DNA from: a virus
Lineage: Duplodnaviria; Heunggongvirae; Uroviricota; Caudoviricetes
Reading direction: 5' to 3' (one strand)
Virus record (IMG/VR): IMGVR_UViG_647533159_000003
DNA: 46,723 bases
The translations under genes and the position numbers were made by a program. Positions within the stretch are counted from its first letter, which is position 1. Each line of letters begins with the position of its first letter. The notes under the pieces were generated by a model. That model saw only the letters and a list, made by a program, of their open reading frames with translations, was not told the DNA's origin and ran no database searches. Positions 1,422 to 46,723 of the stretch are shown one piece after another.

Positions 1422-3896
1422 TTAAAAATCAGCCTGATTCGGGATCAGTTTTTGCCAGATTGCTGAAACGTATTTCGCCTGGTGACGGGCATCATCCAGC
1501 GCATGGTGGCGCACGCCTTCAAATGGAATAACTGTTCTGGCATCGAAGTCGATAGTTTTTCCCAGTTCAACGATTGTACGTACATCGCGATCGTTGTAGT
1601 AACGCCACGGGCAGGGGATGTTCAGGCGTTCGTACGAGGTTCGTAAAATAGTGTTGTCGAAAGTTGCACCATTGCCCCATACCTGAACGAATTTTTCATT
1701 CGAGTACTCATTGATGAATTCCCGAAATTGAATAAGAGCGTCAACCAGTTTTACCTGATCAACTAAAATTGCAGATCTGGCTTCGCTGGACTGAGCAAGC
1801 CACCATTCGATGGTGGAACCATCAGGTACAGCCCCCGTGTCCATAGCGTCAACCAGGCTGATAACGATATAAAATGTTGGCCCGATTTCCCCGGTCTGCG
1901 GATCGAAGAACACAGCACCAATAACCACGATGGGGGCATTACTTTTTTTACCCATCGTTTCAAGGTCGATCATCAGGTGGTACCACACTCTGCTGGTGGA
2001 TGTGCTTTTATGATGACCATTCACATTAATTAAGGGATCTGCCGCCTCACCAGTTTCACTATCGCTGGCGTGGTCCTGAGCGCCGCTAGTGTCCCCCTTG
2101 TGTGGATGTTCAGCGCCTTCCATTTCCTCCGGATCATTTTCCTGAACTTCAACCTGATTCTCTTCATCGAATGTTTCCTGATATGTTGCGTTGCCCATCA
2201 CCGCGCCACAATCAGGGCAGTTGCCGCCACCGCTCTGACCGCAGGCGGTGCAGGTTTTTTCTGGTTCTTGTTGCGCTACTGGTTCGGATTGTTTCGTTTC
2301 TGGCTCGTTTTGTAACGCATTTTGGCTGTTTTGTTCCGCTTTCTGGTCGTTCTGTTCCGTTTCTTGCTGGTTCTGGTACACAGAATCGCGGGTTTCAATC
2401 CCCTTCACCCATTTCGGATCATTCGGGTCGCTAATCCCTGCAACAAATTCTCCGCGAGAGGCAGCAAGCAACTGATTGGCGTCAGGCTGGCTGACTGCCT
2501 GCATAATTTTGTTTACTTCGTCAGCGGTAACTTTTACCGGCTCTGGTTGTGCGGTCGTGTCAGATGCACCAGTATTTTGTTGTGAACCTGAGTATGTGCC
2601 GTTTTTGCGGGCAAAATATTCTTCTTTCGTGATTTCAGTAGCCCCGGCAGCCAGCGCCTTATTCAGACCAGAAAGTTTGTTTGCACGACCATATTTTTCG
2701 CCATCCTTATCGGTGAAGAGGAAGTAGAACGGCCCCTCACGCTCTACAGATGGTTCAGTTTCCAGCGCGCTTTCATTTTTTTTGGTATCAGATACTTCAG
2801 TTTCCACTGCATCAGTTTGTGCTGCTGACGGCTGGAGAATATCAGCAGTGTTCTGGTCTGTTTCTTCATCCTCAAACACGCCCTTTGTCGCCAGGTATTC
2901 AGTGATGTATTTGTTCAGTGCCACGGGATCCTTGTGAATGTCGATCGGACGCTCACGGACAAGGCCAAAAATAGTCTGACGGTCATAGCGAATGGCATCA
3001 GGCTGTTTGCGCATTGATGCGGAAATACGCTTCCAGTCTTCGCGATCGTTCTCGATAACTTCATTTTTTGCCCAGCGATGGATGCTGCCGTCAATGTTTC
3101 CGGCATCAATGTCACTAGGCCACAGAGCGTAGGCCAGTTCATCATCCAATGTTTTCCATGTCTGCTTGTATTCGCGACGAATAACTGCAGTGACAGGGGG
3201 GATTTTTTCTGCTGAGTTTTCAGTGTGCTGTCGGTTGACTCTGGTGCGGGCGAGATCAACAACAGACGTGTATTTTCCAGTCTCTTTGCGCTCCGCGTCC
3301 TGCCGTTTTTTCCAGTTACGTAATTCAGCCTGAATTTCGGGCCATTTGGCACCCGGCTTACATTTGTGTTTACCCCATCCGATAGCGAACAGTTTGCGTT
3401 CCGGATACATAGCGTTAATTTCTGGTGTTTTCATCAGTGCTTCAACGATATGCCCGTCGAATGTCGCCACGTCTTCCTGCAGTAACTCCTGTGCGCTAAT
3501 CACCATATCAACGGTGATGTTTTCACATGTACCGAACTTAACCAGGACCGCGTTCTGTACTTCAAGGGACAGCTTGTCAAAATTGACGTTCATCGGATCG
3601 GATTCTGGTTCGACCGGAATAAAGGAAGCGGATTCCTCATCCCAGCGGTTTTCCTGCATATATTCGGTATCCCAGGAGTCGATAGCAGGGCGGGGCATGC
3701 CGGGTTTATCCTCGCAGACAAGAAATTTATAAGCGCAGTCCTGAGCAGCCGGATATTGCTCCAGGAATTGCCAGGTAAATTTGGCACGGGCGCGGCGTTC
3801 GTCACCGGCTTCAATGGCAGTGGCTACAGCAACTGCACCTTCTTCCTTTATTGCCTGTTCGTCCGGAATGGCGGCGCAAATAAAGACTTTACTCAT
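1422..3896 (-). CDS. Putative exonuclease (C-terminal DEDDh/DnaQ-like 3'-5' exonuclease domain; acidic Q/E-rich linker and Cys4 zinc ribbon)
   Basis: 824-aa ORF in the exo/bet position; C-terminus carries DLETMG ... HHALDDA motifs; central [16 protein letters not shown]. Confidence 0.7.
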
Positions 3897-8546: not shown

Positions 8547-9391
8547 NNNNNNNNNNNNNNNNNNNNNNNNNNNNNNNNNNNNNNNNNNNNNNNNNNNNNN
8601 NNNNNNNNNNNNNNNNNNNNNNNNNNNNNNNNNNNNNNNNNNNNNNNNNNNNNNNNNNNNNNNNNNNNNNNNNNNNNNNNNNNNNNNNNNNNNNNNNNNN
8701 NNNNNNNNNNNNNNNNNNNNNNNNNNNNNNNNNNNNNNNNNNNNNNNNNNNNNNNNNNNNNNNNNNNNNNNNNNNNNNNNNNNNNNNNNNNNNNNNNNNN
8801 NNNNNNNNNNNNNNNNNNNNNNNNNNNNNNNNNNNNNNNNNNNNNNNNNNNNNNNNNNNNNNNNNNNNNNNNNNNNNNNNNNNNNNNNNNNNNNNNNNNN
8901 NNNNNNNNNNNNNNNNNNNNNNNNNNNNNNNNNNNNNNNNNNNNNNNNNNNNNNNNNNNNNNNNNNNNNNNNNNNNNNNNNNNNNNNNNNNNNNNNNNNN
9001 NNNNNNNNNNNNNNNNNNNNNNNNNNNNNNNNNNNNNNNNNNNNNNNNNNNNNNNNNNNNNNNNNNNNNNNNNNNNNNNNNNNNNNNNNNNNNNNNNNNN
9101 NNNNNNNNNNNNNNNNNNNNNNNNNNNNNNNNNNNNNNNNNNNNNNNNNNNNNNNNNNNNNNNNNNNNNNNNNNNNNNNNNNNNNNNNNNNNNNNNNNNN
9201 NNNNNNNNNNNNNNNNNNNNNNNNNNNNNNNNNNNNNNNNNNNNNNNNNNNNNNNNNNNNNNNNNNNNNNNNNNNNNNNNNNNNNNNNNNNNNNNNNNNN
9301 NNNNNNNNNNNNNNNNNNNNNNNNNNNNNNNNNNNNNNNNNNNNNNNNNNNNNNNNNNNNNNNNNNNNNNNNNNNNNNNNNNNNNNNNNNN
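8547..9391. other. Run of 845 N (assembly gap or masked sequence)
   Basis: Uninterrupted n characters; length not a multiple of 3, so the reading frame is not preserved across it. Confidence 0.99.
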
Positions 9392-16878: not shown

Positions 16879-16954
<76 letters not shown>

Positions 16955-16957
16955 TAT

Positions 16958-17032
<75 letters not shown>

Positions 17033-18741: not shown

Positions 18742-18763
18742 GGGCCGCTGGTGGCCCTTTTTT
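18742..18763 (+). terminator. Rho-independent terminator closing the TerB-like cassette
   Basis: GGGCC-gctggt-GGCCC followed by TTTTTT. Confidence 0.65.
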
Positions 18764-18783
18764 ATTTACAGGAGAAAAAAAGT

Positions 18784-19176
18784 ATGTCTGAACCCTTATC
18801 CGGTTCCGGCACGGCTGCGGCGCTCGGCGGGGCGACGGTATTCGGGCTGTTTACCGGAACGGATTTCGGGATTGTGTTTGGTGCGTTCGCCGGGGCGTTA
18901 TTTGTGGCAACAATTCCGCAGGCGCTTTCAGCCTGGCGTGTGGCGGCGCATTTTCTGGTGTCGTTCATTATCGGCGTGCTGGGGGCAGAGGTTCTGGCAT
19001 CCTGGCTGGTAAAGCACACAGGGTTTGACGGTGCACCTGTCGACGCATTGTGTGCAGTACTGGTGTCAGTGGTGTCGGTGAAGATTCTCTCGTTCATCCA
19101 CCAGCAGGATATTGCATCACTGGTGTCCGGCCTGTTCTCCCGCCTGCGGGGTGGAGGAGGCGGCAATGTTAAGTAA
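18784..19176 (+). CDS. Putative holin (Gly-rich multi-TM membrane protein)
   Basis: AGGAG SD; three hydrophobic segments; directly upstream of the endolysin block. Confidence 0.5.
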   Translation: MSEPLSGSGTAAALGGATVFGLFTGTDFGIVFGAFAGALFVATIPQALSAWRVAAHFLVSFIIGVLGAEVLASWLVKHTGFDGAPVDALCAVLVSVVSVKILSFIHQQDIASLVSGLFSRLRGGGGGNVK

Positions 19177-19441
19177 CCTTCCCGGATTACTGAATGTGGC
19201 GTTATGCACGGTTATCGTGCTGACGCTCTTTTTTTATCGTCGTCGTGACTCCAGACACAAACCGCTGATGTCATGGCTGGCCTGGCTGCTGATGCTGCTT
19301 TATGCCTTTGCGCCCCTCAGCTATCTGTGTGGTCGCCCGTTAGCGGCGAACTGGCTGGCGGTGGGGCTTAATCTGCTGTTCTGCGTGCTGGTGATACGTG
19401 CACGCGGGAACGTTTCAAAAATTCTTTCATTCCGGAGGTGA
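19166..19441 (+). CDS. Putative second holin/antiholin-type membrane protein
   Basis: GGAGGAGG SD; overlaps the preceding ORF by 11 nt; 2-3 TM segments. Confidence 0.45.
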   Translation: MLSNLPGLLNVALCTVIVLTLFFYRRRDSRHKPLMSWLAWLLMLLYAFAPLSYLCGRPLAANWLAVGLNLLFCVLVIRARGNVSKILSFRR

Positions 19442-19443
19442 GT

Positions 19444-19821
19444 ATGTCGGGTAAATTCAGATTCAGCCGTCGCAGTGAAAAAAATCTGGAGGGCGTTAAA
19501 CCACAGCTGGTTGCTGTAGTTCGCCGTGCGCTGGAGCTGACGGAGGTTGATTTCGGTATTACGGAAGGGCTGCGCACGAAAGAACGCCAGAAACAGCTGG
19601 TTGCAGAAGGTAAGAGCCGGACCATGAACAGCCGCCACCTGACCGGTGATGCGGTGGATGTTGTGGCCTACATTGGCAGCCAGGTGTCATGGGACTGGCC
19701 TCTGTACGAGAAAATCGCGCAGGCATTTAAGCAGGCTGCCGCAGAGCTGGGAACTGCCATCGAATGGGGCGGGGACTGGAAAACACTGAAAGACGGGCCT
19801 CACTTTCAGTTGAAACGCTGA
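19444..19821 (+). CDS. Endolysin, peptidase M15 family (L-alanyl-D-glutamate peptidase, T5 Lys-like)
   Basis: GGAGG SD 5 nt before ATG 19444; zinc-site-like HLTGDAVD and DGPHF; N-terminus resembles T5 endolysin. Confidence 0.8.
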   Translation: MSGKFRFSRRSEKNLEGVKPQLVAVVRRALELTEVDFGITEGLRTKERQKQLVAEGKSRTMNSRHLTGDAVDVVAYIGSQVSWDWPLYEKIAQAFKQAAAELGTAIEWGGDWKTLKDGPHFQLKR

Positions 19822-19853
19822 TAACCAGGTGTGTTATGAGCAGAAAACACTGG
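19752..19853 (+). repeat. 102-bp direct repeat, copy A (endolysin 3' end plus first 18 nt of the next gene)
   Basis: Identical to 20418-20519. Confidence 0.95.
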
Positions 19854-20417
19854 NNNNNNNNNNNNNNNNNNNNNNNNNNNNNNNNNNNNNNNNNNNNNNN
19901 NNNNNNNNNNNNNNNNNNNNNNNNNNNNNNNNNNNNNNNNNNNNNNNNNNNNNNNNNNNNNNNNNNNNNNNNNNNNNNNNNNNNNNNNNNNNNNNNNNNN
20001 NNNNNNNNNNNNNNNNNNNNNNNNNNNNNNNNNNNNNNNNNNNNNNNNNNNNNNNNNNNNNNNNNNNNNNNNNNNNNNNNNNNNNNNNNNNNNNNNNNNN
20101 NNNNNNNNNNNNNNNNNNNNNNNNNNNNNNNNNNNNNNNNNNNNNNNNNNNNNNNNNNNNNNNNNNNNNNNNNNNNNNNNNNNNNNNNNNNNNNNNNNNN
20201 NNNNNNNNNNNNNNNNNNNNNNNNNNNNNNNNNNNNNNNNNNNNNNNNNNNNNNNNNNNNNNNNNNNNNNNNNNNNNNNNNNNNNNNNNNNNNNNNNNNN
20301 NNNNNNNNNNNNNNNNNNNNNNNNNNNNNNNNNNNNNNNNNNNNNNNNNNNNNNNNNNNNNNNNNNNNNNNNNNNNNNNNNNNNNNNNNNNNNNNNNNNN
20401 NNNNNNNNNNNNNNNNN
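19854..20417. other. Run of 564 N flanked by identical 102-bp sequence
   Basis: n characters; flanks are exact duplicates, suggesting an unresolved contig join or a masked insertion. Confidence 0.99.
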
Positions 20418-29080: not shown

Positions 29081-29108
29081 GGGGCGGGATATACCCGCCT
29101 TTTTCTTT
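29081..29108 (+). terminator. Rho-independent terminator after the capsid gene
   Basis: GGCGGG-atata-CCCGCC followed by TTTTTCTTT. Confidence 0.7.
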
Positions 29109-29127
29109 ATCGCACGGGAGAGATGTG

Positions 29128-29493
29128 ATGACAAAAGAGCAGATGACGGAACGCCTTCAGGCGCTGGCAGTGATTCTGGGGCGTGAAGCAGATATTTCAG
29201 GTTCAAAAGCCGATCTTGAGCAGCGTCTGGCGGAATGGGAGGAGGAGGCCGCCGGATTCGATGGGGAGGAGACGGGGAAGGAAGAGGTGGGCAACGATGC
29301 ATCCGGCGACGGAATGCATTCTGAGCAGGGACTCGCCCGGGTGCGTATGCTGAAAACGGCGCATATGCCAGCCTGTGATGCTGTGACGGGAAAAATGTTG
29401 ATGTTTGCCCGGGCCTTCAGTGTTGTGCTGGTTAATGAAGCCACAGTTCCCGCGTTGCTGGCAGACGGTCTGGCAGAAAAAATCCGGGAGTGA
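29128..29493 (+). CDS. DNA-packaging/head assembly protein (lambda FI-like)
   Basis: GGGAGAG SD then ATG 29128; MTKEQMTERLQAL... resembles the lambda FI N-terminus. Confidence 0.6.
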   Translation: MTKEQMTERLQALAVILGREADISGSKADLEQRLAEWEEEAAGFDGEETGKEEVGNDASGDGMHSEQGLARVRMLKTAHMPACDAVTGKMLMFARAFSVVLVNEATVPALLADGLAEKIRE

Positions 29494-29897
29494 TGATGTT
29501 CAATAATCTGTTCGATCAGGCCATGAGTGATGCGGATGACATCATCCTGGATACGATGGGGACGGAAATCAGCATATATCCGGGCGGCACGGAAAGAAAA
29601 ATCCGTGCCGTTTTTGATGCCCCGGCAGATAACACCGGGATTAACACTGGCAGCGGCGAAATTCGTGATACTGCGCCCGTGTTATTTACCCGGAGCGCAT
29701 GGGCCGCCGGTCTGAAAAAATATGACAGGGTCATGATCCACGGCGAACCCTATCAGGTAGTCGATCCCGGCTGGGATGAGTCAGGCACTGCGGGTCAGGG
29801 GGTGATTACCATCACCCTTGCGCGTGGAGAGCCGGGGAGAAATACACCTGCTGCCCCTGTCCGACCGAGTAAACGTTATGGCAGTCAGAGAGCATGA
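29493..29897 (+). CDS. Head-tail connector protein (lambda FII-like)
   Basis: ATG overlaps the FI stop (ATGA); ...FNNLFDQAMSDADDII..TMGT... resembles lambda FII. Confidence 0.7.
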   Translation: MMFNNLFDQAMSDADDIILDTMGTEISIYPGGTERKIRAVFDAPADNTGINTGSGEIRDTAPVLFTRSAWAAGLKKYDRVMIHGEPYQVVDPGWDESGTAGQGVITITLARGEPGRNTPAAPVRPSKRYGSQRA

Positions 29898-30600
29898 ACG
29901 AAGCAGTGCCCGGCAGCGACGGCTGGCACGAAACCTCGTCGTCGATATTGATGAAGATGAGGTGCTGAAAATTATCGCTAAACTGGGTGGGTCAAAAAGT
30001 CAGATCCGTAAAGCCTGGGGCGTGGCGCTGAAAAGAGCCGCGTCTGCACTGCGGATGAAGGCTATGGCAGAGTTTAAAAAACAGGTTGCCCCACGCAGTC
30101 AGAAAATGATCAAAAAGCGTGTTCTGCATAATTTTATCATTCGTCGTAACGGTGATGAGTTTGATGAGGCGAAGGTATGGTTCGGTCTGAATGCCATCAA
30201 AGTACGCGATCTGCGCGGACGCATCAGTGGGGGGCGACGCGGCGAACGCCATCAGTTGCGCGATGAGCGGGGGCGTTTTGCACCAGCTTCCAGCCGCAGG
30301 AAGGCTCGGGAGATCCGTTTTAAACCTGCCGGGGAATCCCTGCCTGTCACCACCTGGTCAACGGATGATGCCTTTATCAACCAGTTCGAAGCGGAAAATC
30401 GTAACGGACGTATATCAAAAAGGAAAACGATACTGATCCGACAGGCATCCGGACGACGGAGGGTGCGTGAAGCGGAAATTGATATTTATGAAGCCATGCT
30501 GAACCGTATAGAGGATTTTGTTTTTCCGGATGCGGAAGCACTGATCCTGAAAAATTTTGAGCATGAACTGAAATTCCGGGTATTTAAGGGGCTGGAGTGA
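29878..30600 (+). CDS. Putative tail completion protein (lambda Z-like)
   Basis: Basic protein after FII in the Z position; start uncertain (ATG 29878). Confidence 0.5.
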   Translation: MAVREHERSSARQRRLARNLVVDIDEDEVLKIIAKLGGSKSQIRKAWGVALKRAASALRMKAMAEFKKQVAPRSQKMIKKRVLHNFIIRRNGDEFDEAKVWFGLNAIKVRDLRGRISGGRRGERHQLRDERGRFAPASSRRKAREIRFKPAGESLPVTTWSTDDAFINQFEAENRNGRISKRKTILIRQASGRRRVREAEIDIYEAMLNRIEDFVFPDAEALILKNFEHELKFRVFKGLE

Positions 30601-31163
30601 TGGAGCCATTGATGATGGGCGCCTGGCATCAGGCGGTGATTGACAGTCTGAAACAAATTCCCTGGGTGGAAGATGCCGATGAGTACCCGGAAAAAGTGAC
30701 GCAACTGGTGACGCCTGCTGTGTTTGTGGATGTACCGGGCTGGGACAAGGCTCATTTTGCTGACGGGCAAACGCGGGTCACGCTGAAATGTGATCTGTTT
30801 GTGGTGACAGACCGGGCCGGGAAGACGGAAAACGTGCCAAAACCGCAGATTTTTGCCCGTTGTCTGGCGATGGATTTATCTGACTGGATTGAGGGAGCCA
30901 CGTTCGGGCTGGATAACGTTGATCCAGCGGTTTTTATCGATGCTGAGGTGGATACCTTCGACCGGCTACTGGACGACTACATCGTTTTCCGTGTCTCTTT
31001 TGAACAGGACATTCCGGTCGGCGAAGATCCGTTTGCGGTTCCGGCAGGTGCGCCGTTACAGGAAGTCTGGCTGGGTAAAGTACCGGAAACCGGCAAGAGA
31101 CATGAGCAGGATTATCGTCTTATCTGGAAATCGGAGGGCACCGGTGATGAGTCTGGCGGATGA
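30600..31163 (+). CDS. Putative head-tail connector/tail terminator-type protein
   Basis: 188 aa, acidic; between the Z-like gene and baseplate V; ATG overlaps the upstream stop. Confidence 0.45.
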   Translation: MEPLMMGAWHQAVIDSLKQIPWVEDADEYPEKVTQLVTPAVFVDVPGWDKAHFADGQTRVTLKCDLFVVTDRAGKTENVPKPQIFARCLAMDLSDWIEGATFGLDNVDPAVFIDAEVDTFDRLLDDYIVFRVSFEQDIPVGEDPFAVPAGAPLQEVWLGKVPETGKRHEQDYRLIWKSEGTGDESGG

Positions 31164-31770
31164 AGTGGCAGAGTTACGCCGCAGGGTGGCGGACATGGTC
31201 CGGCGTGGTGTAGTGGAAGAGGTGATCCCGGGTAGTCCGGTGATGGTCCGGGTGGATATCGGGGATGTGCTTTCGCCGCCGTTGCCCTGGATTCAGGTAC
31301 AGTCCGGGCGCTACATGCAGGTCAGTAATTATCCGGCCCCCGGAGATGCCGTTACAGTGATATCGGAGGCGGGCGATCTGCGTAACGGTCGGGTGTATCC
31401 GGGGCCCAATATTGACGCCATTCCTGTCCCTGAGGGCAGTGAATACGAACATGTTATTTTGTTTGATACCGGAACGGAAATCCGTTACGACCGTCAGGCT
31501 AATGCCCTGTCCATCGCGCTGGCTGAAGGCGGCAGCTATAAAATTACCGGCAGGGGAACCCTGGACGGTCCGGTAGAAATCACAGATACCCTGACCGTAC
31601 AGGGTAAAGCAACCATGAATGCTGAGGCGGTGGTTAAGGCGGATCTGATGGTCGGTGGTGAGGTTTCTGATTATCACGGAACGATGAGTCAAATCAGAAT
31701 TGTCTATAACGGTCACAATCACCGGGGCGACAGTGGTGGCAGCACCGGACAGCCTGGTCAGCAAATGTAA
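31147..31770 (+). CDS. Baseplate spike/assembly protein V (P2 gpV-like)
   Basis: 207 aa; C-terminal ...VYNGHNHRGDSGGSTGQP motif typical of gpV-type spikes. Confidence 0.8.
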   Translation: MSLADEVAELRRRVADMVRRGVVEEVIPGSPVMVRVDIGDVLSPPLPWIQVQSGRYMQVSNYPAPGDAVTVISEAGDLRNGRVYPGPNIDAIPVPEGSEYEHVILFDTGTEIRYDRQANALSIALAEGGSYKITGRGTLDGPVEITDTLTVQGKATMNAEAVVKADLMVGGEVSDYHGTMSQIRIVYNGHNHRGDSGGSTGQPGQQM

Positions 31771-37507: not shown

Positions 37508-37810
37508 ATGTCGGAAAAAAACAGTGTTCCTGCCAGCAGCGTGGAAATTGTGTTATCCGTGCCGTATGTCACCGCATCAGGACAGACGATCACGCACGTC
37601 ACTATGCGTGCGCCCACTGTCCGCGATCGTCTGTTGCATCGCCGGAGTAACAAACCGGAAGCAGAGGCTGATCTGGATATGATTGCCGGTCTGTGTGGGA
37701 TGGACGCGGCAGACATGATGAACATGGAAGCGTGTGATTACCTGGCCCTGGAGCGTCAGTTTAATGTTTTTTTGCTGCCGCCGGTCCGGCGGAAGAAGAA
37801 AGCATCCTGA
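37508..37810 (+). CDS. Tail assembly chaperone (P2 gpE-like), zero-frame product
   Basis: AGGAG SD; 100 aa; ends ...LERQFNVFLLPPVRRKKKAS; contains the slippery heptamer. Confidence 0.7.
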   Translation: MSEKNSVPASSVEIVLSVPYVTASGQTITHVTMRAPTVRDRLLHRRSNKPEAEADLDMIAGLCGMDAADMMNMEACDYLALERQFNVFLLPPVRRKKKAS

Positions 37811-37947
37811 CAGCGATACGGCGTGCCGGTGCCTGGTTCGGGTGGTCTCCCGGAGATGTGATGGCGCTGCCGTATACGGATTTTGTGGCAATGATGCTGG
37901 CGGAGTCGGAAGAGAGGAAGCGATGTTATGGCAACGGTGGGCGATAA
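37508..37947 (+). CDS. Tail assembly chaperone, -1 frameshift fusion product (E+E'-like)
   Basis: Shift at T_TTT_TTG (37768-37774) into the -1 frame, which stays open to TAA 37945-37947 (...FFAAAGPAEEESILTAIRRAGAWFGWSPGDVMALPYTDFVAMMLAESEERKRCYGNGGR). Confidence 0.55.
37768..37774 (+). promoter_or_regulatory. Programmed -1 ribosomal frameshift slippery heptamer
   Basis: T TTT TTG in the chaperone zero frame; conserved feature of tail chaperone genes upstream of tape measure genes. Confidence 0.55.
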
Positions 37948-41367: not shown

Positions 41368-44050
41368 ATGTCTGTATTAATTTCGGGTGTGCTGACGGAT
41401 GGCACGGGACTCCCCATGTCCGGATACCATATTATTCTGAAAGCCCGACAGAATACATCCGCAGTGGTTATGAGAACGGTGGCAACAGTGGTGACGGGGC
41501 CGGCAGGAGAATATGCATTTGAGGCTCAGACCGGAAGATATGACGTTTATCTTCGGTCATGTATTGAAAGAGAATATTGTGTTGGTGATATTTCGGTTTA
41601 CGACGATTCAAAGCCCGGCACACTGAACGACTTTCTGACCGCCCTTGATGAAGGCGATTTAAAGCCGGATGTAGTGAAACGCTTTGAGGAACTGGTGGCG
41701 CAGGCGCAGCAGAGCGCGGAAGCGGCAGCGGAAAGCGAACGACAGGCCGGGCAACATGTCGCTGATGCGCAACAAATCAAGAGCGACTGCGAGACGCTGG
41801 CGGATAACGTACAGCAGAATGCAGAAGCCGTTGCCGAAGATAAAAAGCAGGTGGCACAGCTGGCATCATCTGCCACACAGGATGCCGCCCGCGCAGAGCA
41901 GGCTGTCAAGGATGCTGNNNNNNNNNNNNNNNNNNNNNNNNNNNNNNNNNNNNNNNNNNNNNNNNNNNNNNNNNNNNNNNNNNNNNNNNNNNNNNNNNNN
42001 NNNNNNNNNNNNNNNNNNNNNNNNNNNNNNNNNNNNNNNNNNNNNNNNNNNNNNNNNNNNNNNNNNNNNNNNNNNNNNNNNNNNNNNNNNNNNNNNNNNN
42101 NNNNNNNNNNNNNNNNNNNNNNNNNNNNNNNNNNNNNNNNNNNNNNNNNNNNNNNNNNNNNNNNNNNNNNNNNNNNNNNNNNNNNNNNNNNNNNNNNNNN
42201 NNNNNNNNNNNNNNNNNNNNNNNNNNNNNNNNNNNNNNNNNNNNNNNNNNNNNNNNNNNNNNNNNNNNNNNNNNNNNNNNNNNNNNNNNNNNNNNNNTAT
42301 TACACCTTTTCCACGCGAACGGAAGAAACCACCGGGGATAACAGAAATTATCTGGCTGGATAATGGCTGGGGCGACAAAACCAGCCAGACAGCAACAAAG
42401 CTGGTTCTGTTCTTTGGAAAAGACGGACGGATTCTTATGACCGTTCGTGGCGATAATATCTCCGCCCCGGTCACCTGGACGAATCTGACGCCACAACTGG
42501 GCAATGCAGCACAAAAGGATGCGCAGGAGAATATTTACGACCGCACCGAAGGCCGCCTGGCGATTCCTGGCATGTTCGGTTTCGGGAAAATATTTTCCAG
42601 TAGCGACAGAACTGAATTTAAATCAGGGACTGATTTTCTCAGGTGGGTAAAAACAGCAAAACCCGGTCGTTATACCGTATTTGCGGACACAAATGTGGTG
42701 GTACCTGGCATACAGACAAACGGTGTTATTGAAATTATCTGGCCACAACCTAAAACCAGCCCGAATGATGAGTATGCCTATAAGATAATTATTTATTACG
42801 GTGTTAATGGTCATATTTATTATAACCGTTGCGCGGTGTCATCAGATGGTGGTTATCTGGTTGGCTGGGAAAACCTGAAGGTTGATGAGGCTTCACTCAG
42901 GGCACTGATTGAAGCCCGCGCACCACTGAAAAGTCCGGCACTGACCGGAACTCCGACAGCACCAACACCGCCGGATGATGCAGCAGGTAATGAAATAGCC
43001 AATGCGGAGTTTGTCCGCAAACTGCTCGCTGCGCTGGTTGACTCATCACCTGAAGCCCTGGACACGCTGAACGAGCTGGCAGCGGCGCTGGGTAATGACC
43101 CGAACTTTGCGACAACGGTCACTAATGCACTGGCAGGTAAACAGCCGCTTAATGACGTGTTAACGGCTGTCAGCCAGATAATACCGGAAGAAAACACGCT
43201 GCCTTATTTCAGTGAAGAGGGCCGGATTTTACTGGCGCAGCTGTCAGAAAAAGCCCGCGCATTACTGGCACTGGACACACCTGAAGCCATGCGCACGGAG
43301 CTTGAGCTGAAAGCGGCTGCGACGATGGAATCCCAGAGCGATATCCGCGACCGTACACCGGGCAGGCTGGCGCTGTCCGGCATGTACGGATTCGGTCAGG
43401 CATTTACCAGCACCGACGCTCTGGCGTTTGACGGACAGGCTGATTTTGCTGAATGGCTGAAAGAGGCCACGCCGGGGCGTTATGCGGTCAGCATTGCGGA
43501 CTCTTCCACGCTGCTGGTTGGCACAACGAAATTTAACGGCATCATTGATGTAATGTGGTCGCCCTTTGATAACGATGAGTCGGACACAACGCGCAAATTC
43601 AAAACGCTGCTGTGTTTTAACCAGTATTACGAAGGTGAGCACAGTATTCATCGCCTGACTTATCGCTGGAGTGGAAACAACTGGAATGCAACAGTAAGCC
43701 CTGTCATTTACGATGGCGATTCGCTGGCGTTCCTGCTGTCCCGAACGGCAGGCTCAGGCTCATATTTCAAATACCCGGCAGTGGGTGTTCCGGTGCTTGC
43801 TGTTTATCGCGGAACAACGTCCGGGGATAAAGAAATCAAAATTGGCCTGGGTGATGTGGTGCCAGGGTCACAACTGGGCGGAGTTAATCTTTCGTGCACA
43901 ATATCTTCTGCGGGGGCTGGCTCCTACGGTTCCACACCGAGTGCAGGAGCTACAGGGTACACTTTTCCGGGGCGTTATATGGCGTTATCCGGGGTCAGGG
44001 ACTCTTACGGAACAAGCGGTCGTATCTGCCTGTTTGTGCGCATCGAGTAA
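41368..44050 (+). CDS. Side tail fibre (lambda Stf-like N-terminus, P2 H-like central collar), interrupted by an N run
   Basis: N-terminus ...ISGVLTDGTGLP...ILKARQNTSAVV...VYDDSKPGTLNDFL... resembles lambda Stf; after the gap ...APLKSPALTGTPTAPT...LNELAAALGNDPNFATT.TNALAGKQP... resembles P2 H. Confidence 0.7.
41918..42297. other. Run of 380 N inside the fibre gene
   Basis: n characters; length mod 3 = 2, which explains the apparent frame change of the fibre ORF. Confidence 0.99.
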
Positions 44051-44064
44051 CGGGGAAATAAGAC

Positions 44065-44643
44065 ATGAAAATCAGAGCGGTAAAAGGCATCAGAAACGCG
44101 CATTATCTCGAAAATGGTGCGGTTGACTGCGAGGTGTTATTTGAAGGTGAAAGGGAATTCGTCCCGTATACCGCCATGCAGGACGATACCGCAATGACAG
44201 GCCAGCGCATCTGGGAAGAGTTACAGAGCGGCAAGTGGGGGAAAATCGCCCCATTCACCGTCACGCCTGAACTTATCGCAGCGGCAAAAGATGCCAAACG
44301 CCAGGAAATCGAAGCCTGGCGCACAGAACAGGAGGCGCAGCCGTTCACGTTCGAATGGAACGGTCGCACCTGGAATGCTGGCCCAGACTCACTGGCCCGT
44401 CTCTATCCGGTGGTAATGGCTGCAAAATCTGATACGGCACGAACCGCCCTTGTGTGGGGCGACGCTGATAATCAACAGGTGAAACTGTCGATGCAGGAAC
44501 TTGAAGAACTGGCGGCAGCACTGGCGCAGGCGCAGGTCAATCGCAACGACGAGATTTATCGTCGGCAGCGGGAGATGAAAGAAGAACTGAATAACTTGGA
44601 TGATTTGCGCTCAATTAGAGCGATTGCAATTAGCAGTAATTAG
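44065..44643 (+). CDS. Tail fibre assembly protein (Tfa-like)
   Basis: 192 aa directly after the Stf-like fibre; its last about 24 codons recur as a remnant at 46046-46123. Confidence 0.65.
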   Translation: MKIRAVKGIRNAHYLENGAVDCEVLFEGEREFVPYTAMQDDTAMTGQRIWEELQSGKWGKIAPFTVTPELIAAAKDAKRQEIEAWRTEQEAQPFTFEWNGRTWNAGPDSLARLYPVVMAAKSDTARTALVWGDADNQQVKLSMQELEELAAALAQAQVNRNDEIYRRQREMKEELNNLDDLRSIRAIAISSN

Positions 44644-44682
44644 CTCAGAAAATGCAAATAACAAGTTGTCATATCATAGAGT

Positions 44683-44704
44683 AGTGAGGGGGGCGCCCCT
44701 CACT
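44683..44704. terminator. GC-rich 9-bp-stem hairpin between convergent genes (bidirectional terminator candidate)
   Basis: AGTGAGGGG-ggcg-CCCCTCACT followed by ATTTATT. Confidence 0.5.
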
Positions 44705-44709
44705 ATTTA

Positions 44710-45255
44710 TTACCACCAGCTATCAGCTTTACTCTCTCGTGCTTTTCCCTCACTTTGCAACAATTCTTTGGTACCAGTTGAAATATTACGCCGAGCATCC
44801 GCTTCTGATTGAATAACGTCAGTTTGTGCAGCCCGCTCCTTGAGTTCTTGATCCAGAAAATCGTTTGCTCTATTTACCCTGGCCCTTTTAGCTTCGAGTT
44901 CGAGTTTTCGGTTTTCTAGCTCAAGTTGGCGTAATTGATCTTCATAATCTTGATCGCGTTTTTTATCTGCCGCCATCTCCGCTTCGAGCTTAGCTTTACG
45001 CTCAAACTCAGCCGCTCGTCGTTGTTTTTCTTTTGCTGCTGCCATAGCCGCTGCTTTCTCTTTGCGAATCCTTTCCGCATTGGCACGTTGGCGCTCTTGT
45101 TCTTTACGTGCATCTTCAATACGTTTTTCTTCGGCTTTACCTTCATTTTCGGCTCGCGCAATAGCCGCTAATTGTTCCTGTAAAGAAGACGCGTTAACGT
45201 AAAAAGTGCTTAGGCACGGCAAAGCTAATAGTATATATAAAGCAAGACGTGTCAT
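44710..45255 (-). CDS. Secreted coiled-coil protein (signal peptide plus K/E/R/A-rich helical region), cargo
   Basis: MTRLALYILLALPCLSTFYVNA signal-like N-terminus; AT-rich; strong charge periodicity. Confidence 0.6.
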   Translation of the reverse strand: MTRLALYILLALPCLSTFYVNASSLQEQLAAIARAENEGKAEEKRIEDARKEQERQRANAERIRKEKAAAMAAAKEKQRRAAEFERKAKLEAEMAADKKRDQDYEDQLRQLELENRKLELEAKRARVNRANDFLDQELKERAAQTDVIQSEADARRNISTGTKELLQSEGKARESKADSWW

Positions 45256-45267
45256 CTGAAATGGCCA

Positions 45268-45780
45268 TTATTTATTATCAGGGCATGTTGCATTTGGTTG
45301 AATACGTGTTTCGTTTTCTTTAGTTGAAATCATGGCTGCTAATCCAGGTGCAAATTGGCAAGCTCTACCAACTTGAGTCGATGTATAAACTTTTGTACCT
45401 TCTTTGTATGTTAGAGAAACGCCTTCAACAATTGTTTTATCTTTGACTAATGAACCAGCGGCTGCACCAAGTGCGGTTCCACCTACAGCCCCTGCGGTGG
45501 TTGCCAGTTTCGAACCACTTTTGGTGTTATGTCCAATTACTCCTCCAGCAACGGCACCAACTACAGCACCGAATGTTTGTGCTGCTTCTTTATTTTCTTT
45601 GTTGTCCACAGCAATTTTTGCAGGAAGAACCGAAATGATAGTTATCATTTTGGTTTCTTGTTTGGAATTAACCTGAGTGGTGTCATAAACATCTGCAGCA
45701 AGATGTTCTGCAGTAGACTGACACCCACTTAATGCAAAGACAGCTAATAAAGAAATGGTTGCTTTATTTAATTTCAACAT
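45268..45780 (-). CDS. Outer-membrane lipoprotein with glycine-zipper motif (SlyB/PCP-like), cargo
   Basis: Lipobox LSGC; glycine zipper GAVVGAVAGGVIG...GAVGGTALGAAAG; AT-rich. Confidence 0.65.
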   Translation of the reverse strand: MLKLNKATISLLAVFALSGCQSTAEHLAADVYDTTQVNSKQETKMITIISVLPAKIAVDNKENKEAAQTFGAVVGAVAGGVIGHNTKSGSKLATTAGAVGGTALGAAAGSLVKDKTIVEGVSLTYKEGTKVYTSTQVGRACQFAPGLAAMISTKENETRIQPNATCPDNK

Positions 45781-46045
45781 TTTACTTGCTCTCCTAGTTT
45801 CTGAGAAACTGCAAATATATTTACCTGAGCTTTTGTGTCAATATTTTTGGGGCTGTTTTGTTGTCTTTAATCAAAAAAAGTATCCTGCTCATATAGTTAT
45901 GTTTAGTGTTTTTATGTTTTTTAATAAATTTCATAAATAGCTGAATTTATTGATATCAATATATAAACTTATCGTGCATACATTGCCCAAAATACAGTTT
46001 CAGAAGGGGGCTGGTTGTTGTTGGGGGCAATGTTATCAGTGGGAA

Positions 46046-46123
46046 ATGCAGGATGAACTGAATAATCTGGATGATTTAAGCTCAATCAGAGAGATGACGA
46101 TTAGCGGCAATCACGCTCGATAA
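46046..46123 (+). pseudogene. Remnant of a tail-fibre-assembly gene 3' end (duplicate of the tfa C-terminus)
   Basis: Encodes (M)QDELNNLDDLSSIREMTISGNHAR versus the tfa C-terminus EELNNLDDLRSIRAIAISSN; about 80% DNA identity to 44585-44643. Confidence 0.5.
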
Positions 46124-46129
46124 AATTAA

Positions 46130-46152
46130 CCCCGGTGATCATCCGGGGTTTT
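46130..46152 (+). terminator. Hairpin terminator (possibly bidirectional)
   Basis: CCCCGG-tgatcat-CCGGGG followed by TTTT; A-rich tract on the other side. Confidence 0.55.
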
Positions 46153-46159
46153 GCATTCA

Positions 46160-46723
46160 TTAAAACCGCATCAACCGTTCCACCAGTTGTTCTTTACGGG
46201 CAACGATCCAGCCGTGTTGCTCCAGATAAAATTTAAACCGCTCCAGAGTGCATACCATCGCATCGGCGGGGACTTTTTCCGTGAACTCGACCTGACCGTG
46301 TTTATCGAAGTGGATCAGTAATGCGAATCCATCATTTTTGGTGGCGGAGTTTTGTGCTGCTGGTGGTTGTTTTTGGCTGAAATAACAGTCTTCGAGTTTT
46401 TCGAACACTTCCCACGCCTGATCGGTTTCGAGCATTTTTGCGTGGCGAGCTGCCCCGCGTTCTGTCCATAGGATGAGGGAGCGGGCTTTGGGAGATATGG
46501 GGTTTTGTGACTTACTTAAAGTAAGTCGCAAATTTTTTAATTCTTCACCCGATGCTTTAAAAAAGTGCTTTCCTTCGACAAAACGCTCTTTGTTTCTGGT
46601 GAAGTTAACCTGGATATTCAGAATTTCGGTGCCATAAAGCTGCGCCAAAAGTTCGGTGGTAATAACAGGGATCTGGTTATGGGTGATCGGGGAGAGAGTT
46701 TCAACAGAGATTTGAGTGGCCAT
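46160..46723 (-). CDS. Phage regulatory protein with ORF6N/antirepressor-like N-terminal domain
   Basis: N-terminal ...NFTRNKERFVEGKHFFKASGEELKNLR... pattern; the window ends exactly on its start codon, so the upstream region is not visible. Confidence 0.55.
   Translation of the reverse strand: MATQISVETLSPITHNQIPVITTELLAQLYGTEILNIQVNFTRNKERFVEGKHFFKASGEELKNLRLTLSKSQNPISPKARSLILWTERGAARHAKMLETDQAWEVFEKLEDCYFSQKQPPAAQNSATKNDGFALLIHFDKHGQVEFTEKVPADAMVCTLERFKFYLEQHGWIVARKEQLVERLMRF

Follow-up and report, generated by a model that had tools for sequence, protein, structure and literature searches.

A phage-borne, diverged copy of the yfgH-yfgI operon beside the tail fibre genes of a phiP27-like prophage is a probable outer-membrane-stabilising moron

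The 46,723-nucleotide viral sequence IMGVR_UViG_647533159_000003, called here the window, carries between the tail fibre assembly gene tfa and an ORF6N-domain gene an island of two genes that we name yfgH' and yfgI'. This island is a diverged paralogue of the chromosomal yfgH-yfgI operon, borne by a phiP27-like prophage, and probably a moron that would be expressed in the lysogen and stabilise its outer membrane; we give this reading a probability of roughly 60%. An original prediction, made from the DNA alone, had proposed that the pair is a candidate for an uncharacterised exclusion or envelope-remodelling system. This was not supported as stated, since the pair is paralogous to a core operon of the host, and an outer-membrane-stabilising role has already been described for the chromosomal lipoprotein (bioRxiv 10.64898/2025.12.22.696046). 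We therefore class the cassette with the known yfgHI family, as a rather unremarkable accessory (moron) unit, and do not regard it as a new type of exclusion system.

In a search set for distant similarity, the island DNA matched 5420 of the 5426 complete E. coli genomes at about 70% identity, and these matches correspond to the annotated core genes yfgH and yfgI, which adjoin guaA. YfgH' and YfgI' are respectively 67% and 48% identical to the K-12 proteins. The island is therefore a diverged paralogue of the host operon (b2505-b2506 in E. coli; srgI-srgL in Salmonella Typhi). Both units belong to the same families and have in common the gene order, a short spacer, similar protein sizes (170 and 181 residues in the window, 172 and 179 in E. 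coli), the lipobox, the glycine zipper, two conserved C-terminal cysteines and the conserved C-terminal half of YfgI. By contrast, the window pair is located on a prophage, has a guanine plus cytosine (GC) content of 40% compared to 47-49%, and possesses its own promoter region.

A synteny scan limited to a single genome for each species yielded 80 loci, which belong to Enterobacterales, Pasteurellaceae, Pseudomonas, Aeromonadaceae, Photobacterium, Nitrosomonas, Paraburkholderia and Rhodospirillales. A YfgH-like protein was also encoded at 79 of these loci, the exception being a 336-bp contig, and its gene lay directly upstream and on the same strand at 78. No homologue of Tfa, ORF6N or gpD was found nearby at any of the 80 loci, and the other contexts inspected were likewise plainly chromosomal. 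The yfgH-yfgI pair is an old chromosomal unit with strict synteny across Proteobacteria. The closest non-phage relatives of YfgI' include a protein (P0006, 67% identical) from a second chromosomal locus, ldhA-hslJ...ydbK, of other Enterobacteriaceae. YfgI' groups with these second-locus copies and with Upf50.0 of phage P7 (71% identity), compared to 48% identity with K-12 YfgI. Regarding this second locus, a yfgHI-type pair is present there in some Enterobacteriaceae (loci L026 and L027; the upstream gene of L026 was called at 123 residues only and may be truncated), Escherichia sp. E1V33 carries two yfgHI-type copies on different contigs (L044 and L060), and the second-locus lineage is nearer to the phage copies than the guaA-linked yfgHI.

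The N terminus of YfgH' (MLKLNKATISLLAVFALSGC-Q), read from the sequence, contains the lipobox LSGC with the cysteine at position 20 and a glutamine at position +2. Because Cys20 is followed by Gln and not by Asp, YfgH' is expected to be sorted to the outer membrane. Among 36 homologues, Cys20 is invariant and Gly19 nearly so; G71, G79, G101 and G105, as well as both other cysteines, are likewise invariant in the YfgH' alignment. The Pfam glycine-zipper 2TM model PF05433 (Rick_17kDa_Anti) matched residues 71-109 with 26.9 bits (cut-off 24.2); in NCBIfam, only sub-threshold matches were obtained for the lipoprotein (PRK11280, YiaD family) and none for its partner. A phmmer comparison aligned residues 12-162 of YfgH' with residues 10-154 of the SlyB chain 7ojf_A, that is over the full length (E = 2.2e-9), and a profile search gave E = 1.4e-9 against 7ojf. 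When the AlphaFold2 (AF2) model of YfgH' was submitted to Foldseek, this same chain was the sole significant match in the PDB (E = 5.8e-8, template modelling score 0.52/0.61), for a model whose predicted local distance difference test score (pLDDT) is 62.

On the grounds of sequence and model, YfgH' is a SlyB-family glycine-zipper lipoprotein, as the original prediction had proposed. The lipoprotein SlyB (PDB 7ojf, 7ojg) combines a glycine-zipper hairpin with a C-terminal beta domain and forms rings enclosing outer-membrane proteins and lipid, and the likeness extends over both the full-length sequence and the fold. The differences are that SlyB is only about 22% identical to YfgH' in a structural alignment and that it has no partner of the DUF5384 family. 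The genetic suppressors reported for SlyB and for YfgH also differ, being linked to the Mla pathway and to clsA, respectively (bioRxiv 10.64898/2025.12.22.696046). Membership of the TraT family was considered for YfgH' and rejected: Pfam PF05818 scored 25.2 bits for a cut-off of 31, Foldseek matches to TraT decamers had E values of 0.07-0.3 and template modelling scores of about 0.3, and the protein has 170 residues. TraT nevertheless offers an analogy, as a ring-forming outer-membrane lipoprotein with a helical membrane barrel whose chromosomal family was co-opted by mobile elements (PMC11733297); it differs by its size of about 225 residues and its extracellular ring domain, so that the 170-residue YfgH' resembles it by analogy rather than by membership.

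The partner, YfgI', had been predicted to be an exported coiled-coil protein. By inspection, it carries a signal peptide ending in V-N-A|SS, and AF2 predicts one uninterrupted helix from residue 2 to residue 180 (pLDDT 86), which agrees with an exported, all-helical protein; heptad analysis did not separate a coiled coil from a single charged helix. The protein matches the Pfam family PF17358 (DUF5384) with 145.2 bits for a cut-off of 25 (E = 1.9e-42). The searches with hidden Markov models and structures that the original prediction had suggested thus placed the lipoprotein in the SlyB family and its partner in DUF5384. Mature YfgI' would comprise about 159 residues, of which 46% are charged and 18% are alanine, and would measure about 24 nm if folded as one helix. 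The C-terminal half is conserved (DKKRDQ.YED...TDVIQSEAD...SWW), with R100, R129, T145, D146, Q149 and D153 invariant in the YfgI alignment, and the N-terminal half varies in sequence and has a high content of Glu, Lys, Arg and Ala. It should be noted that YfgI-type proteins end in aromatic residues (SWW, SWF or GFF) and that their predicted helix of about 24 nm would be comparable to the width of the periplasm. Sequence and profile searches of the PDB with DUF5384 gave chance coiled-coil matches or none, and a literature search for DUF5384 found no paper; a yfgI mutant was reported to show 7% survival on nalidixic acid (PMC3536626).

In the phage collection, the lipoprotein was found only in P7/P1-like phages and in TL-2011b. 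The P7 pair, annotated upf50.5/upf50.0, is flanked by the c4/icd/ant region on one side and the tub/sit late genes on the other, and YfgH' and YfgI' are both 71% identical to its products. It is thus another phage-borne pair of the yfgHI type, whose YfgI-like protein ends in SWW like that of the window; it differs in its genomic slot, which is not fibre-adjacent, and in the type of phage that carries it. About 190 plasmid matches in E. coli genomes include P1-like elements of the P7 kind, and the P7 annotation already records similarity to E. coli proteins. We do not count TL-2011b as a separate phage example: its pair shows 100% identity to K-12 yfgHI and is most likely host flank included in the record (JQ011317.1, locus L005, pair at 2355-3425). 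Because this record probably holds host flanking DNA, PHROGs 1277 and 1094 appear to mix host and phage sequences; PHROG 1277 is moreover mislabelled 'DNA methyltransferase'.

The variant found in the window occurs in one of the 5426 complete E. coli genomes, that of strain 52F4, and in draft genomes in prophages at three other positions, namely beside yecD/aspS (L014-L019), beside pphA (L028) and in a Salmonella prophage where the order tfa-yfgI'-yfgH'-ORF6N is the same at 75-78% nucleotide identity. At least four prophage lineages, in E. coli and Salmonella, carry the cassette immediately after stf-tfa. Between the window and Salmonella, identity reaches 86% for YfgH' and 85% for YfgI', compared to 65-74% for Tfa, 42-64% for the Stf tip and 74% for ORF6N. 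The ratio of non-synonymous to synonymous substitutions (dN/dS) is 0.02-0.06 for both genes relative to the E. coli and Salmonella prophage copies and 0.09 for YfgH' relative to P7 and K-12, with dS reaching 1.5 and beyond in these comparisons. Both phage genes are under strong purifying selection.

The island had been described as inserted by recombination between two tfa homologues. The duplication of the tfa 3' end is real, although slightly wider than first delimited: positions 44566-44653 and 46037-46126 share 77.8% identity across 90 columns (blastn, E = 4e-15), the sole match of this kind in the window, and their translations end in ...EMKEELNNLDDLRSIRAIAISSN and ...EMQDELNNLDDLSSIREMTISGNHAR, each before a stop codon. 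The intact tfa ends in ...RAIAISSN, as in the yecD-side prophages. The remnant ends in ...REMTISGNHAR, the type that adjoins ORF6N or Rha in sister prophages (L002, L025), and the window from 46037 to 46723 corresponds at 97% to the tfa 3' end and ORF6N of RM9088. Because the remnant matches the RM9088-type tfa end and the intact tfa matches the yecD-side type, we conclude that a block made of the stf tip, tfa, yfgI', yfgH' and the promoter region is joined to a resident tfa at 46036/46037. The homology of the yecD-side loci to the window spans the cassette and ends at 46080, inside the tfa remnant, at the prophage-host junction. That the homology ends within the remnant implies that the latter already belonged to the block at the time the block passed from one prophage lineage to another.

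The comparison of this slot across related prophages, also suggested at the outset, showed that among sister prophages at ompW it is empty in RM9088, where ORF6N directly follows tfa, and that two unrelated plus-strand genes occupy the tfa/ORF6N boundary in SC407. In Stx2e and enterotoxigenic E. coli (ETEC) prophages, a tfa that is 90% identical to that of the window is followed by Rha without the cassette. Because the slot of SC407 holds a different cargo, the tfa/ORF6N boundary is a cargo hot-spot. This SC407 cargo (L003, 3734-4436) encodes, on the plus strand, proteins of 89 residues (weak MarR-like helix-turn-helix match, E = 0.014) and 142 residues (coiled-coil-like), neither of which matches a known family. 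In E. coli O139:H1 W13-16, a degraded Stx2e prophage at ompW whose terminase and fibre genes are truncated, the 90%-identical tfa is followed by Rha and ash-family genes without ORF6N (L025, 2548-3863).

The role of the tfa remnant as the mark of a recombination junction and the absence of the cargo from sister prophages held, and the idea of a simple insertion into an empty site had to be refined, as the gene order is shared with Salmonella and the 'empty' sisters carry other tfa alleles. Since the same order is found in Salmonella at about 75% identity, the tfa-yfgI'-yfgH'-ORF6N arrangement is old. The cassette would have come with a swap of the stf-tfa module, the right crossover taking place inside the resident tfa, of which the last 87 bp or so would have been left. 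With the direct repeats in place, the island can now be either lost or transferred, and the 'empty' prophages may never have had the cassette or may have lost it.

Regarding expression, the two genes form the tight minus-strand operon described earlier, with open reading frames 12 nt apart, and this operon is opposed to the direction of the late operon. A near-consensus candidate σ70 promoter and a Shine-Dalgarno sequence precede yfgH' (Table 1). The palindrome that separates the convergent tfa and yfgI' is, judging from its sequence, likely to act as a bidirectional terminator. The number of promoter-like sites in the region was not above shuffled expectation, and a scan of positions 44000-46723 against Rfam revealed no RNA family at E ≤ 0.1. 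The marked AT-richness that had been noticed was borne out, the GC content being 40.3% in 44644-46036 compared to 50.7% in the remainder of the window, and 30.9% in the upstream intergenic region (45781-46036). The features expected of a moron are thus found, namely a candidate promoter and hairpins, a deviant GC content and a slot that lacks the cassette in close relatives.

In the mechanism that we favour, the operon would be transcribed from its own σ70 promoter, against the late operon, and it is because of this promoter and orientation that expression in the lysogen is proposed. YfgH' would be lipidated and sorted to the outer membrane, where its glycine-zipper hairpin would insert and SlyB-like rings would assemble. 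By surrounding outer-membrane proteins and patches of lipid, the rings would keep the membrane stable during stress, a role reported for chromosomal YfgH and for SlyB. YfgI' would be exported to the periplasm, form a helix some 24 nm long and act with YfgH' through its conserved C-terminal half. The net result would be a tougher envelope of the lysogen, owing to a second ring-forming stabiliser and its helical partner. That the lysogen gains such a second stabiliser is suggested because of the findings on chromosomal YfgH: deletion of yfgH leads to SDS/EDTA sensitivity, a leakier outer membrane and loss of outer-membrane proteins under stress, YfgH overexpression rescues knock-downs of outer-membrane biogenesis genes, and YfgH, for which AlphaFold3 predicts SlyB-like rings, co-purifies with BamA, LptD, OmpF/C/A, LamB and TonB-dependent receptors (bioRxiv 10.64898/2025.12.22.696046). 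The orthologous srgIL operon of S. Typhi is regulated by SdiA (PMC11619404).

Several points weigh against this proposal. Ring formation is a prediction even for chromosomal YfgH, and AF2 modelled YfgH' with modest confidence (pLDDT 62). The candidate promoter is a consensus match, and the upstream region, with 31% GC, could be silenced by H-NS. The sensitivity to nalidixic acid is the sole phenotype reported for yfgI (PMC3536626). E. coli hosts nearly always have yfgHI, and the gain from a second copy, 67%/48% identical, is unexplained; this redundancy could point to a specialised, phage-related role.

Such a role might be superinfection exclusion or receptor masking, in which YfgH' rings would enclose or distort a receptor from the periplasmic side, as Llp does FhuA, thus blocking adsorption or DNA entry of competing phages, or sparing progeny a dead-end adsorption to debris. 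Cor, Llp, Lom and Bor are small envelope proteins encoded beside receptor-binding genes and expressed independently of the late operon. The cassette differs from them in having a conserved chromosomal counterpart and a second, helical partner, and Pfam and PHROG searches found no similarity of the pair to any of the four. The fibre-adjacent slot in at least four prophage lineages, the co-purification of chromosomal YfgH with the classical phage receptors OmpC/F/A, LamB and TonB-dependent transporters, and the precedent of TraT, a distantly similar ring lipoprotein taken from chromosomes by plasmids for surface exclusion (PMC11733297), are in favour of this explanation, and a second, diverged copy in a host that has yfgHI suggests specialisation. 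However, no tie of the cassette to the fibre receptor was found: an identical YfgI', with a YfgH' 86% identical to that of the window in both cases, is found next to Stf tips that differ from each other (42% and 64% identity to the tip of the window), the 90%-identical tfa is found without the cassette in many ETEC and Stx2e prophages, and the P7 cassette lies away from fibres. Between E. coli and Salmonella prophages, the cassette (85-86%) is also better conserved than Tfa and the Stf tip, and its very low dN/dS values indicate purifying rather than diversifying selection, without the signature of an arms race. Neither protein matches PADLOC and no homology to Cor, Llp or Lom was found in Pfam or PHROGs, a negative outcome with which an exclusion activity would be compatible. 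Because the pair matches a host housekeeping function, the kind of finding that the original prediction had itself named as contrary to it, the exclusion idea is weakened; we regard it as unlikely and, from these sequence comparisons, as weakly disfavoured. A broader idea, drawn by analogy and quite unlikely in our estimation, is that phages have repeatedly captured and specialised the YfgH/YfgI ring-lipoprotein system, as plasmids did TraT, either as an envelope 'armour' or as an exclusion device caging receptors or blocking the passage of phage DNA, with YfgI' as a periplasm-spanning strut that would link the rings to the cell wall or inner membrane.

A function in the lytic cycle, by which the outer membrane would be reinforced late, lysis delayed or synchronised, or lysis from without prevented, appears improbable. 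It would fit the known activity of the family, outer-membrane stabilisation, and the location of the P7 cassette just upstream of, and codirectional with, the late tub/sit operon, but in the window the operon converges with the late operon and is preceded by a σ70-type candidate promoter of its own, and the lysis genes of 52F4 (two holins and an M15 peptidase) align far from the island, to positions 18761-19853. The same distance from the lysis cassette argues against a spanin-like pair, in which the lipoprotein and a periplasm-spanning coiled coil would fuse the membranes at lysis. Despite a superficially similar architecture and weak matches to PHROG spanin families (E = 0.03-0.04), this hypothesis is effectively refuted by the chromosomal distribution, the pair being core in E. 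coli and forming an operon at 78 of the 80 species loci, none of which has homologues of tfa, ORF6N or gpD in its vicinity; the lipoprotein moreover has a SlyB fold with a transmembrane hairpin, its gene comes first, and the helical protein has by inspection a cleavable-looking signal peptide and not a membrane anchor. Spanin membership was accordingly discarded on distribution, location and fold. It is also very improbable that the island is functionless DNA travelling with the recombinogenic tail fibre module. The physical linkage to the mosaic stf-tfa block and the rarity of the window variant (1 of 5426 complete E. coli genomes) would suit such a hitch-hiker, but both reading frames are intact, their dN/dS values lie at 0.02-0.09 with dS as high as 1.5 or more, no variation is seen in the lipobox, the other two cysteines or the glycine zipper, and promoter-like and Shine-Dalgarno sequences have been kept.

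The island shows that a conserved host operon for envelope homeostasis, yfgHI, whose lipoprotein was characterised only very recently, circulates on temperate phages. Diverged and selectively maintained copies are carried both by P7-like phage-plasmids and by P27-like prophages in E. coli and Salmonella. They offer a natural gain-of-function handle on YfgH/YfgI biology and a testable case of prophage-conferred outer-membrane robustness or phage exclusion. Two database corrections also follow, concerning the label of PHROG 1277 and the host DNA in the TL-2011b record.

Table 1. Positions of the cassette, its candidate expression signals and the neighbouring genes in the window
Feature	Positions	Strand	Evidence
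Stf-like side tail fibre	41368-44050	+	Open reading frame list; 52F4 homologue annotation; homologous loci carry Pfam phage_tail_N and Phage_fiber_2
Tfa, tail fibre assembly protein (DUF4376), C terminus ...RAIAISSN-stop	44065-44643	+	Pfam DUF4376 E = 3e-17; PHROG 1141 E = 7e-89
Direct repeat copy 1, functional tfa 3' end	44566-44653	+	blastn against 46037-46126
GC-rich palindrome GTGAGGGGGGCGCCCCTCAC, between convergent tfa and yfgI'	44684-44703		Sequence; scan site 44688-44701
yfgI' (DUF5384), predicted exported protein, 181 residues	44710-45255	-	Pfam PF17358 E = 1.9e-42; PHROG 1094; AF2
yfgH', SlyB-family glycine-zipper 2TM outer-membrane lipoprotein (predicted), 170 residues	45268-45780	-	Pfam PF05433; 7ojf; Foldseek
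Shine-Dalgarno sequence AGGAGA, 10 nt before the yfgH' ATG	45791-45796	-	Read from sequence
Candidate near-consensus σ70 promoter, TTGACA-16 nt-TATATT (11/12)	45814-45841	-	Consensus scan
Direct repeat copy 2, remnant of a different tfa allele (...REMTISGNHAR-stop)	46037-46126	+	RM9088 match 97%
Terminator-like hairpin AACCCCGGATGATCACCGGGGTT, common to tfa remnant and ORF6N	46128-46150		Scan
ORF6N-domain anti-repressor-like gene, right neighbour of the slot	46160-46723	-	Pfam ORF6N E = 1.4e-21; PHROG 2379 E = 1e-91

In essence, the window covers a single complete prophage, extending from the integrase gene to the ORF6N anti-repressor-like gene and ending at the start codon of the latter. A prophage of E. 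coli 52F4, integrated at ompW, shares 91-96% identity with it and combines lambdoid regulation genes with a contractile tail of the P2/Mu type; the tfa of this 52F4 prophage resembles that of phiP27. This 52F4 prophage has two sets of fibres, a P2-like fibre within the baseplate cluster and a lambda-Stf-like Stf-Tfa pair after gpD. It also carries an ISEc12 insertion beside the lysis genes (29089-31391 of locus L024), which is not found in the window, where the alignment jumps from L024 31476 to 28895, and a hokD toxin gene (37742-37897). Three runs of N, 1789 bases in total, are present in the window (8547-9391, 19854-20417 and 41918-42297); the second comes after the lysis genes and the last interrupts stf, and they look like deliberate masking rather than biology. 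Finally, genes for tRNA-Thr(TGT) and tRNA-Gly(TCC) are found at positions 16879-17032 of the window and also in the 52F4 relative.

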